Shown here: piece after piece, positions 42,001 through 51,000 of the stretch | Layout: every line of letters begins with the position of its first letter | Position numbering within the stretch: the first letter of the stretch is position 1 | Assembly (NCBI RefSeq): GCF_045037415.1 | Contig: NZ_CP173438.1 | Strand: one strand, 5' to 3' | DNA length: 64,000 bases | Source: Escherichia coli | GTDB taxonomy: Bacteria > Pseudomonadota > Gammaproteobacteria > Enterobacterales > Enterobacteriaceae | Program-made: the position numbers

Positions 42001-45000
42001 TGAAACAAGCCATACACGCCCAATCTCCTGACACAGATCCTTATTACGTGAATATGGCCATCTGGCATCTCTATGAATTGCTCCGTGAACGCGATAATGA
42101 ACAAAAGCAGGAGAAAATAGCGAGCACTACATTCATAACCAGCAATGAGCCCATCGAGAACAAGATCATCCTACATTCACCAACTAACGTGATCTTCTTT
42201 GGCCCCCCTGGCACTGGCAAAACCTTCAGGTTGCAGCAAAAAATGAAAGAGTACACTTCTCATGCTGTTCCAGCTGATCGTGATGCCTGGCTGGATTCTC
42301 GCCTTGAATCGTTGAATTGGATGCAGGTTATAACGCTGGTGCTGCTCGATCTTGGGAAACGAGCCAAAGTTCGCCAAATTATTGAACATATGTGGTTTCA
42401 ACGTAAGGCATTATTAAACGGTCGTAATGGCAACCTATCGAATACAGCCTGGGCAGCTTTGCAATCCTATACAGTTCCCGAGTCGTTAACCGTTGATTAT
42501 AAGAATCGGCGTGAGCCTGCCGTATTTAACAAAACAGATAACAGCGAATGGTTGCTAGTTGATTCACAGCTCGAGCAAGTGGAGGATTTGGTAGAGCTCT
42601 ACGCCGAACTTAAACGAGGCCCTAAATCTGCCGAAGCCATCCAGCGTTTTGCGGTGGTTACGTTCCACCAATCTTACGGCTATGAAGAATTTATTGAAGG
42701 TATACGCGCTCGCTCTGACGAGAGTGGCAATATCTCTTATCCCATTGAGCCGGGTATCTTTATGCGCCTTTCCCAACGTGCCAATGCCGATCCAGGACAT
42801 CGCTACGCCATTTTCATTGATGAGATCAATCGCGGTAACATATCCAAGATCTTTGGTGAACTAATCTCACTCATTGAAGTAGACAAGCGTGCAGGCATGC
42901 CCAATGCAATGAGCCTACAACTGGCTTATAGCGGTGATCACTTCAGCGTACCCGCCAATGTCGATATCATCGGAGCCATGAATACAGCGGACCGTTCTTT
43001 AGCTCTGATGGACACGGCTTTGCGCCGTCGCTTTGACTTTGTCGAAATGATGCCCGATCTCTCTTTACTGAGTGGAGCTAAGGTGAAAGGCATAGAGCTC
43101 GAGTCGTTGTTAGAGAAACTCAATAGCCGCATCGAGGCTCTTTACGATCGTGAACATACGCTGGGGCATGCGTTCTTTATGCCGGTAAAAAATGCACTCG
43201 ATGCCGGTGATGAAGAAGCTGCGTTTAAACAATTGAAGATCGCATTCCAGAAAAAGATCATTCCGCTTTTACAGGAATACTTTTTCGATGACTGGAACAA
43301 GATCCGGTTGGTGCTGGCAGACAATCAAAAGCAAGACGACAACCTGCAATTCGTGATTGAGAAAACCGACGATCTCGATACGCTTTTTGGTAACAACCAT
43401 GGTTTACGACACCATGATCAGCAATCAACAGCTTACGAACTCAAAGATTTCGATCAAGAGATCTGGAATATTCCACAGGCTTATCGTTCAATTTATCAGC
43501 CCCAGCAGACTCCCCTTGATGAGCAGGCTGTAAATCATGGGTGAAGTTATCTCCGTTTTTGAATATGACCTATTGGGGAGTGACAAAGCGGCTTCAGTTG
43601 GCGCAAAACTGGTGCCTCCACTGGTCTTTAATTATTTAGAAGCGCTTAGCTTGGCAAGTAATCAAGGGAGCCAGTTCCTCAAACTCACCTCTCGCTCAGG
43701 CTTCAAATTGCTTCAGGTTCAAAACTACGCGGGGATGCTTTCAACACCTCACGGTTTCCAGCTTGAGATACTGCCCAAGGTTGGTAAAAACCTCACAGCG
43801 GCTAATGCACGTCAAACATTACTGACGATGCTAAGCCATTTGCCTGGGTTTCGACATATTGAAACTCAGCAAGCCACTCTTCAGGCTCAGCGTATGCCTT
43901 TGCTTGAGATTTTTATTCACCAGTTTTTGCATAGCGTTAGCCAATTACTTAAACAAGGTTTACGCTCCGACTATGTGAGCGAGCAAGGTAATCTGGCTTT
44001 TATGAAGGGCAAGCTGATGCTTTCTGCACAGCTGCGACATAACGCGGTGAATCGCCATAAGTTTTGTGTCGATTATGATGACTACATGCCTGATTGTGCA
44101 GCCAATCGGCTCTTACACTCCGCGCTAGATAAGCTTCTTAGTCTAAAGCTGTCATCAGAGAATCAACGCTGGCTTTACGAACTGCGCTTTGCGTTTGACG
44201 GTATTCCACTTAGCCGGGATATTGAACGTGATATAAACAACTTACGCCTCGAGCGTGGTATGGCTCATTACAACGAGCCAATGGCGTGGGCGCAATTGAT
44301 CCTGAGAGGAATGAGTCCGAGTGCTTTGCAGGGAAACACCAAAGCGATATCACTTTTGTTCCCTATGGAAGCGGTATTTGAATCCTTTGTGGCACAGACC
44401 CTACCCTACGAATTACCTTCTCATCTCAAAGTAATACCACAAGCGGCTACTTATTCTCTTGTGAAGCACGGGTCTAACGATTGCTTTAAACTTCGGCCGG
44501 ATTTGTTGATTCAGTCACGTCGACCGGTACAAACCAAATTGGTGATGGACACAAAATGGAAGCTAATAAATAGCAACTCCCAAAAAACAACACAGTATGG
44601 GCTAGCGCAAGCCGACTTCTATCAAATGTTTGCCTACGGTCAAAAATACCTAAATGGGATTGGCGAAATGTACTTAATCTATCCTGCGCATGATCAATTT
44701 AACCAACCGATACAGCAGCATTTTGCTTTCTCTAAAACATTAAAACTATGGGTTGTTCCGTACCAGATAACAGCAAACCGCGGGGAGAGGATGATGTGGG
44801 TGAAGGATGTGTCCAGTATATAAATTTCTAGCCAAGCTGGCGATGAACCAGTCCTCTAAAAAATGGGTATAATCATAGTTTATTTACTAATTAAATTAAT
44901 ATAAAGTAATTACTTTATTATATGGAGAATTTATGAAAATGGGAAAAATTGCAGTTACTCCTAATAATGATAAAGCAGCCAGCCACTCTAAAGATGAAAA

Positions 45001-48000: not shown

Positions 48001-51000
48001 TAATTGATAGTCATTTTCGGGGTGATGGATATAATATTTACCACTTCCATCTTCACCATGTTGCAAAGGAGGCAGATCAGATAATGCATCCTTTACAGAT
48101 ACCCAAGATTCCTTATCTTCTGTTAATTTTTGTGGAGGTTCAATTGAAAATAAAGGGTCGTTTGAACCAACCAATATAACCCTTTTTCGGCGCTGAGGGA
48201 TTGCATAATGTTCAGAGTTTAATATCCATCCATTCATAGTTTTCATGGTTGATGAGAATTCTTCTTTGACTCTTTCAAAGACCTTACCTTTTTCCATATT
48301 CAACAAACCAGCAACATTTTCAAAAATAAAACCGTTTGGTTTTATCTCATTTAAGAGAGATTTATAATGCATAAAAAGTGAATTTCTTGGATCATCCATT
48401 GTTCTGGCATTTCCTGCCGTAGAAAATCCCTGGCATGGGGGTCCACCAAGTATCCATAATTGTTTATCAAAATATAATTTCTTAAATCCTGATATTTTAT
48501 CTGCTATTTTTGAAAAAGTTTCATTATCAGAAATGCTGCCACATAAAACTTCTTTGTGAACATTGTTTGAATATGTTTGTAGATATTTTTCTTCAATATC
48601 ATTCGCCAATAATGGAGTCCATCCAGCCCATTTGAATCCTAGTCCCAGCCCTCCAGCTCCGGAAAATAAATCGATATAATAACCAGTATTACCTATCGCC
48701 TTCTCTATTTCTTTCGCAATCAGAAAAGCTAAAAATGGGGGCACTGCATTACCGATTTGGGTATTAATTGCTGTTTGACCTCCGAAGAAAATAAAATCAT
48801 CCGGGAACGATTGTAGTCTTGCAGCTTCTCTCTGGGATAGAACACGATCTTGCTCATAGTGAATATGGCAACCATTCCCAGGTCGGTTAAAATATGTATT
48901 GATAGTATATGCAGGCATATCTGGAAGTAATCTACCGTAGTATGTTGAACGGCTTCCTTTTCCTTGTGCATAACTATCCCTAATTTGCTCTATTCTTTTA
49001 GACGGTACATCTAAAGGAATATTTTTCCAGTTGCCACCTGGCGGTACTGAGTTAACAATCATCATATCCAATTCACTTAGCTTTGCTGCCTTGTGATTGG
49101 GAATCATAAATGTTTCACTTTTAGTCATAATGTTGAAAAATCCTCAATAAACTTTCTTTTTCAGCTAACTCAATCTTATCAAATGAAGACAGAAGCTTAT
49201 TAAATTCATTCAAATCCAATTTGTAAATATTTTTGGCAACATAAGCCTCAATTTTCAACTCAGCATCACAACATCCCTCTATGCAAGAAATCACAAGTTG
49301 TTTTAATTCAGAATGTTGTAATAATATTTTTTCAGACGGTATTGCAGTTTTTCGTAAGGCTGACAATGATACATGACCAGTAGCTAAAAAGCTTCTTAAT
49401 TGAAATTCAAAACAAAGGGAGTTTATAATACCAAGCAAACTAAAGAGCGAATCTTGCGAACCACTTTTATAATAGACCACCCCTAATGAATTCCCTGCCA
49501 AAGAGTTAGGAGGTATTATCGTTGCAATCATTCGCCTTTTTTGACTCGGGCGTGAAATGTCACGCCATGCAATCCTTACGAAATTAGAATTGGATAGAAC
49601 CTTATCAATTTTTTTCGTTATTCTTAAGCTCTTCTCATTATGAAAATTATACCTCCCAATCATTTTTCCTTTAATGAATAATAATCCGCCGCCACTTTTT
49701 TGTGTCCAGTCACTACTACCAGTTTCATCTATTTCTCTTCCTGCCCATATCTCTCCATTTTTTTCCAGACTACCCCATGTTGGGTATCCCTCTTGCAGCT
49801 TTCTTAACAAATGAACGGCATGAACACCTTGAGATACCGGAATGCTAAGATATTGAGAATCTATACTAGACAAATCAAAAAAACCTAGTGATTTAATATT
49901 TAAGTTTTTATCATACACACTAAGTTGAATATTATCATTAAGGGATTCACCTTTATTAAAAATAAAAGAACATGAAGAAACATCAGCACCGCCGAATAAT
50001 TTAGCCTCAGCTGGATAATAATTTATGCAATCAATCCTCCCTGAATTAAAAAACTTTTCACGTAATATGTACGATTGTTCATCTGCGAAAAAAGATGCAG
50101 GCATAACTATAGCTACCAATCCATTTTTATTACATATTTCTAAGCTAAGTTCTGCACCAACACGTGAAAGATTAGTCCCCCACCCAGCAAATTTACGCTT
50201 CGGCTGAGAATATGGCAATACTCTTGACAAATAATCATCAAACTCACGAAGAGAGTCTATATACATCGATTTCATAGATGGTTCAAAAAAATCGAGCTCT
50301 CTAGAATCTGGTTTTATATTCTCCCAAGGCGGATTGGTTATAACACAATCAAAATAATCAACATATTTTTTAAATTCATAAAAAACATCACTATTTTTTA
50401 TAGTAATGTTAATATTTGCACCTGCTAACTTAAGTTCAGACAACGCATTTTTAGCATAAGTGAGGCCTGTATTTTCTATATCGAACAGATAAACATTCCA
50501 CTCTACATCTGGAAAACCATTTATCATCCATTGTTTAATAAGCAATGTAATAAGTCGACCATCCCCTGAAAATGGATCTGCGACATTATAACTTTTTTTA
50601 TCACAGGAATTTATCAATGGTAATAACTTCTCTATCATCAAAAGAGCTATTTTTGGATCTGTATAGTATTTACCTGTCGCTTTTTTAGTGAATTTTGTTG
50701 TCTCGTCCAAGGACAGTGAATTAATTAAATGGATATGTTTCATGTAAAATATCTCTTCCATTAATAATATGGATTATATCATTTAACTTGTGAACACTCA
50801 ACAATAACTGTACATAAAAACAGTCATTAAAGATTTCCCCTAGAGTGAGCATCGCTATAAAAATTTAAATTAATTTTATCCTGCTCCGAAAGAAACAGTT
50901 ATCATTTATTCCATAAAGAATAACTTGCTTTATAATCACTTTAAATATCGATATCAATTTTAATACTATGGTTACTTACCATATCAATAAATAGCTTAAC

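Follow-up and report, generated by a model that had tools for sequence, protein, structure and literature searches.

Does a restriction–modification (R–M) locus still restrict once its endonuclease gene has been cut in two by an insertion sequence (IS), or is it left only to modify? The question is raised by a stretch of 64,000 nucleotides from Escherichia coli (NCBI RefSeq assembly GCF_045037415.1, contig NZ_CP173438.1; hereafter, the window), in which the endonuclease (R) gene of a Type IIS R–M locus lies convergent with the genes of two methyltransferases, M1 and M2. Our analysis indicates that the locus is very probably the EcoMI/Eco31I-type system carried by the GI-leuX island in the pandemic E. 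coli sequence type 131 (ST131), with its R gene split by an IS, restriction most likely lost and methylation kept. The endonuclease gene (1740 nucleotides) is interrupted between 45518 and 46767 by a 1250-bp element of the IS3 family, whose ends (TGAAGTGG... at 45518 and ...CCACTTCA at 46767) form imperfect terminal inverted repeats; the sequence was read directly, and a script confirmed the junctions. The interrupted gene comprises the following parts:

44933..45517 (open reading frame, ORF, to 45520), plus strand: 5' fragment of the R gene, codons 1-195, equal to the first 585 nucleotides of the intact allele
45515..45517, unstranded: left copy of the target-site duplication ATT, of which a single copy stands at the empty site of strain THO-003
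45518..46767, minus strand: ISEc52 (IS3 family, IS911-like), 1250 bp, apparently intact, by its TG...CA termini, its match to NF033516 and its OrfAB
46768..46770, unstranded: right copy of the target-site duplication ATT
46771..47925, plus strand: 3' fragment of the R gene, codons 196-579 and the stop codon, HNH core included

When 44933-45517 and 46771-47925 are joined, they give 1740 nucleotides in one frame, encoding 579 amino acids with zero internal stops. Since the IS opens with TGA (45518-45520), which follows codon 195 in frame, the 5' ORF covers precisely residues 1-195, and the first in-frame ATG of the 3' fragment is found at 46843 (codon 220). As regards public annotation, the NCBI Prokaryotic Genome Annotation Pipeline (PGAP) used for RefSeq presents the two halves as separate 'hypothetical protein' coding sequences (CDSs), without a pseudogene label for one disrupted gene. 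The 5' half (44933-45520) is WP_230015901.1, and the 3' half (46768/46825-47925) is WP_306306298.1 or WP_231527706.1, with starts that vary by genome.

The extent to which this arrangement is shared was assessed by a megablast comparison of the locus with 5426 complete E. coli genomes, in which the empty site was counted as a full-length match to a 120-nucleotide probe across it and the interrupted site as a full-length match to a probe across the left gene–IS junction. The uninterrupted site was found in 612 genomes and the exact IS junction in 17, making the latter a minority allele; its carriers originate from Europe, the USA and Asia, their hosts being humans and a dog, and several are labelled O25b:H4-ST131. 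The initial annotation had proposed that an uninterrupted allele be sought in related isolates by polymerase chain reaction, and the genome comparison supplied it in those 612 genomes. The intact gene of E. coli THO-003 (positions 6134-7873 of comparison locus L001; WP_000781649.1), annotated as an Alw26I/Eco31I/Esp3I family type II restriction endonuclease, shows 0 mismatches to the reconstruction over its 1740 nucleotides, and its flanks are 100% identical to the window over 6.7 kb and 9.2 kb. Hence, the split of the endonuclease gene with duplication of ATT and the ORF of about 579 residues obtained by deleting the IS and one ATT, both claimed beforehand, were borne out with both junctions exact. 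Several ST131 chromosomes additionally match the window over 24 kb at a rounded identity of 100%. ISEc52 is a multi-copy element, present twice in the window and matched in 4885 genomes, which could favor the idea that a repeat misled assembly or scaffolding and so put the element into the R gene; this idea is, however, barely credible, given the exact junctions with their 3-bp duplication, the recurrence of the identical junction in 17 genomes finished independently and drawn from several countries and hosts, and the presence of three further strains in which the R-gene copy of the IS itself bears an intron. The 17 genomes with the exact junction, together with the 612 with the empty site, establish that the insertion is real and no assembly artefact. 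We infer that the 17 genomes descend from one ancestral insertion in an ST131 sublineage, of which the IS junction would be a clean marker.

The identity of the inserted element deserves comment, as it had been named IS911. The element carries orfA at 46393-46695 (100 amino acids), an A6G slippery site at approximately 46438-46444 and orfB extending to 45548; a -1 frameshift fuses the two frames into an OrfAB of 382 amino acids, and the transposase matches the NF033516 (transpos_IS3) model with 303 bits. The 'frameshifted' flag that RefSeq attaches to the IS is explained by this programmed frameshift. The likeness to IS911 is extensive, encompassing the length of 1250 bp, the TG...CA ends, the 3-bp duplication and the orfA/orfB organization with an A6G -1 frameshift that yields OrfAB. 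By ISfinder convention, however, elements that share a name have at least 95% nucleotide identity. The element in the R gene is 100% identical to copies annotated as ISEc52 family and differs from IS911 in having about 94% (94.2%) nucleotide identity to copies annotated as IS911 family, RefSeq naming serving as the proxy in both cases. Strict identity with IS911 was ruled out on these figures; the name IS911 given in the initial annotation is approximate, and ISEc52, the family to which RefSeq assigns the element, is the better one.

The second ISEc52 copy lies about 26 kb away at 16323-19843, in the opposite orientation, and is identical to the R-gene copy at 1250 of 1250 positions. It is interrupted at IS position 488/489 by a group II intron of 2271 bp (17085-19355; Rfam RF00029 match at 19269-19355, 64.9 bits) on the same strand as the transposase. 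The ltrA frame of the intron is broken in the window into ORFs at 17741-18385 and 18357-19265, with 1 gap and 4 mismatches relative to the copy of strain S4. This second IS copy adjoins a truncated yjhR and is flanked by CGA on one side and CTT on the other, without a matching duplication (16310-16335, 19831-19856); it probably accompanied a deletion or rearrangement. In strain 4993 and in the ST131 strain EC958, whose R gene is intact, this yjhR-side copy likewise occurs but lacks the intron, and it is a plausible donor of the R-gene insertion. In E. coli S4 (comparison locus L005, NZ_CP107140.1, 1227-4666), an intron 99.8% identical is found at the same ISEc52 position inside the R-gene copy of the IS, and strains S12 and 2024CK-00184 show the two-piece match and the ltrA annotation seen in S4. 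These three strains consequently harbor a group II intron within an IS within a restriction gene, a distribution that suggests retrohoming of the intron between ISEc52 copies.

What the insertion has divided is a nuclease of a well-defined family. The reconstructed protein matches PF09665 (RE_Alw26IDE) over residues 44-559 with an E value of 4.9e-188 in Pfam, and TIGR02986 in NCBIfam with 663.1 bits against a cutoff of 443.85. The exact protein exists in the public collection as an Alw26I/Eco31I/Esp3I family endonuclease, the representative of its UniRef cluster being Q8RNY7_ECOLX. Nuclease homology of the reconstructed ORF, the lack of which had been named in advance as counting against the annotation, is therefore present through both PF09665 and TIGR02986. 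The catalytic center was located as follows:

47068..47205, plus strand: HNH (beta-beta-alpha-Me) catalytic core, residues 295-340, from alignment, Pfam and an AlphaFold2 (AF2) model

When 37 homologues sharing 47-86% identity were aligned with the protein, the invariant residues comprised a Cys4 set (C295, C308, C330 and C333), D311-H312, N334 and N338. The generic Pfam models HNH and HNH_5 match residues 294-341 weakly (E = 0.003). The AF2 model, with a mean predicted local distance difference test (pLDDT) score of 83.8, places strands at 309-312 and 326-329 and a helix at 331-336, so that residues 309-336 are predicted to form a beta-beta-alpha-Me unit. The HNH-like motif attributed to the endonuclease was in this way substantiated by the invariant Cys4, D311-H312, N334 and N338 residues along with the predicted beta-beta-alpha element. 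Whole-chain fold searches neither added to nor took away from the HNH assignment, and no sequence relative of the reconstructed nuclease was found among all PDB chains at E ≤ 1. From the literature, Eco31I is counted in the HNH superfamily on the evidence of mutagenesis (PMC2441816), published classifications assign PF09665 and Eco31I to the His-Me/HNH superfamily on that evidence, and Eco31I is characterized as a two-domain monomer that nicks both strands sequentially with one HNH site (PMC3664794).

The methyltransferase side of the locus, by comparison with the R gene, is unbroken, and consists of the following features:

49121..50743, minus strand: M1, N6-adenine methyltransferase, 540 amino acids (TIGR02987, WP_001295726.1)
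47938..49128, minus strand: M2, circularly permuted C5-cytosine methyltransferase, 396 amino acids (TIGR00675, WP_001295727.1)
50773..50801, minus strand: promoter-like site 5' of M1, TTGAGT-17-TATAAT with extended TG, from a consensus scan only
47931..47951, unstranded: GC-rich hairpin where the convergent genes meet, resembling a terminator on either strand and overlapping the end of the M2 gene, from a consensus scan only

M1 matches TIGR02987 with 662.4 bits (cutoff 353.5) and contains the motifs DPFSGDG at residue 56 and NPPW at residue 137. M2 exceeds the cutoff of TIGR00675 with 176 bits in a match that falls into two stretches, and its motifs follow one another in the order IX (100), X (126), I (153), IV (228), VI (269) and VIII (312), that is, with IX and X ahead of I-VIII, as expected of a circular permutation. 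Such a permutation has already been described for M2.Eco31I and M2.EcoMI (PMC5944983). Both ORFs are intact and convergent with the nuclease gene, and the end of M1 overlaps the start of M2 by 8 bp, which points to an operon; the stop codons of the nuclease and M2 genes are 12 bp apart, with the hairpin in the gap. The description of this side as an intact, convergent operon of an NPPW amino-methyltransferase and a C5-cytosine methyltransferase accordingly agrees with the TIGR02987 and TIGR00675 matches and the 8-bp overlap. The intact M1 ORF reaches 50761, the end of the span in the initial annotation, where an alternative ATG would yield 546 amino acids; the RefSeq start at 50743 is the more likely one. 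By analogy with the characterized systems, the product of M1 would be GAG(m6A)CC, carrying N6-methyladenine (m6A), and that of M2 is expected to be GGT(m5C)TC, carrying 5-methylcytosine (m5C). Avoidance of GGTCTC/GAGACC in the window was not significant, with 11 sites observed and about 28 expected from base composition, hexamers of the same composition having a mean of 31.7 and a standard deviation of 15.6.

These observations can be assembled into a scheme. In the intact state, M1 would methylate the adenine of GAGACC and the permuted M2 a cytosine of GGTCTC, and the two would jointly protect both strands of the asymmetric site. Insertion of ISEc52 would then leave a 195-residue N-terminal stub and a promoterless 3' part bearing the HNH core, so that nuclease activity would be lost while methylation would continue. 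The break at residue 195/196 falls in a confidently modelled region of the AF2 structure (every block of 10 residues from 181 to 230 has a pLDDT above 90) and not in a linker, and the consensus scan detected no promoter-like site reading out of the 46767 end of the IS. The unbroken methyltransferase operon and its upstream region, the break in a folded region and the 3' piece devoid of an evident promoter together lead to the reading that restriction is lost and methylation retained, and the designation of the locus as modification-only is, judged from sequence, well founded and most likely correct.

Some points weigh against this reading. The 3' fragment retains the entire HNH core and the in-frame ATG at 46843, low-level expression of this fragment by read-through or from a cryptic promoter may occur, and the R-minus, M-plus state assigned to the IS-bearing strains is itself deduced from their genomes. 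The first of these points, along with the in-frame start codons and the RefSeq calling of both pieces as CDSs, would suit a situation in which restriction persists, either because both fragments are made and reassemble or because the 3' fragment alone is active. We consider this very unlikely: no promoter is evident for the 3' piece, the IS runs in the opposite orientation and has no outward promoter-like site at its 46767 end, the break at 195/196 separates a region folded with pLDDT above 90, and Eco31I is described as a monomer of two domains that has a single active site (PMC3664794). Jakubauskas et al. reportedly found in 2008 that the catalytic domain, when isolated, is inactive; if so, a rogue nuclease is unlikely.

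At the other extreme, the whole locus might be dead, with the methyltransferases silent or inactive as well and nothing modified or restricted, as the abundance of IS elements and pseudogenes in the region could suggest. The conservation of the methyltransferase side makes such a state highly improbable, however, as the DNA of M1, of M2 and of some 9 kb downstream of the IS matches that of strains with the intact system at 100% identity, and the promoter-like region upstream of M1 is likewise unchanged, at 100% identity to those strains. Moreover, the proteins carry the same accessions as in EC958, where M1 is highly transcribed (PMC4659465) and single-molecule real-time (SMRT) sequencing found m6A at 100% of the GAGACC sites (PMC4659465). 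Loss of restriction with retention of methylation hence remains the preferred reading of the locus.

Regarding its broader meaning, the HNH nuclease, permuted C5 methyltransferase and methylation motif of the system have, like the system itself, been published already, and the knock-out of an R gene by an IS is a routine event, seen here in 17 of 5426 finished genomes. R–M systems decay safely, in the textbook view, when the nuclease goes ahead of the methyltransferases, in which case the cell survives losing restriction. In practical terms, a reader of RefSeq encounters the R-gene halves as unrelated 'hypothetical proteins' in place of one pseudogene. The IS-bearing strains should take up unmodified DNA containing GGTCTC more easily than EC958-like strains, and their own DNA should remain resistant to BsaI/Eco31I. 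A more far-reaching proposal appears to us unlikely, namely that lost restriction combined with kept GGTCTC/GAGACC methylation is the mark of an ST131 sublineage that has spread worldwide, the change being adaptive and not neutral; if true, the lineage would present a lower barrier to unmodified plasmids and phages, and the methyltransferases would have been kept for gene regulation or for immunity against re-invading Eco31I-type systems.

The surroundings of the locus in the window contain further mobile and defense-related genes. A McrB/McrC pair adjoins the R–M locus at 41469-44823. Only residues 389-612 (AAA+) of the 691-residue McrB fit the K-12 McrB model (143 bits, cutoff 637), no significant Pfam match was obtained for its residues 1-388, and McrC reaches 98 bits against the cutoff of 338 of the K-12 model; as both scores lie below their cutoffs, the pair was ruled out as an equivalog of K-12 McrBC. 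The McrBC of EC958 has been assumed to be K-12-like in behavior and synteny (PMC4659465), whereas the order in the window, namely uxuA, fim, nan and yjh followed by the locus, argues against K-12 synteny. ISEc12 (IS21 family, istA/istB) is found at 51902-54204, where it separates two pieces of a helix-turn-helix pseudogene; Ecol_AZ146 lacks it at this position, and the EC958 copy is located between the DUF987 and yeeU genes, differences that make its position polymorphic among ST131 strains. Farther away, at approximately 7811-10303, fimB is split by an ISL3-like ISEc53 with a ClbS/DfsB-family gene, as mapped from the annotation of strain 4993 (10083-12575 of comparison locus L003, minus 2272); an insertion in fimB is a published ST131 hallmark. 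From 54500 to 64000, the annotation of identical genomes lists a CbtA/YeeU toxin–antitoxin pair, DUF957, DUF5983 and DUF987 genes, a JAB-domain protein, an antirestriction protein, DUF932 and an autotransporter of the Cah/Ag43 type, a content typical of a CP4-like or GI-leuX element.

The closest known system is EcoMI (M1.EcoMI, M2.EcoMI and the endonuclease EC958_0010), named in EC958 and carried on GI-leuX (Forde et al. 2015, PMC4659465). In the RefSeq record of EC958, the locus is located at 4977699-4985720, with M1 as WP_001295726.1, M2 as WP_001295727.1 and the intact R as WP_000781649.1, the same accessions that are annotated in the genomes matching the window; it is absent from the first 30 kb of that record, despite the tags EC958_0008 to EC958_0012 used in the paper. 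The likeness to EcoMI extends to identical accessions for M1, M2, McrB and McrC, to gene order and island context, and to the reconstructed R, which equals the EC958 protein. The differences are that the R gene of the window is interrupted by ISEc52 at codon 195/196, whereas that of EC958 is intact, and that ISEc12 occupies another island position in EC958. The EcoMI methyltransferases are in turn reported to be 100% identical to those of Eco31I, which act on GGTCTC (PMC4659465). By analogy, and resting on the m6A data of EC958 (PMC4659465), the system of the window would recognize GGTCTC, cut at 1/5 and have its methyltransferases act on opposite strands. The Type IIS layout foreseen in the initial annotation, with an asymmetric site and one methyltransferase per strand, is supported by the accessions shared with EC958, the GAG(m6A)CC data of that strain and the description of Eco31I. 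As for Eco31I itself, the prototype Type IIS system of E. coli RFL31 (GGTCTC(1/5)) with its relatives Alw26I, Esp3I, BsaI and BsmBI, the likeness includes matches to all of TIGR02986, TIGR02987 and PF09665, a single HNH site, m6A and permuted m5C methyltransferases and a convergent R gene, that of the nuclease being known through membership in the UniRef cluster of Q8RNY7_ECOLX; the difference is that the nuclease gene is broken in the window. Taken together, these features place the locus in the Alw26I/Eco31I/Esp3I Type IIS family, as a member whose R gene is interrupted and most likely inactivated.

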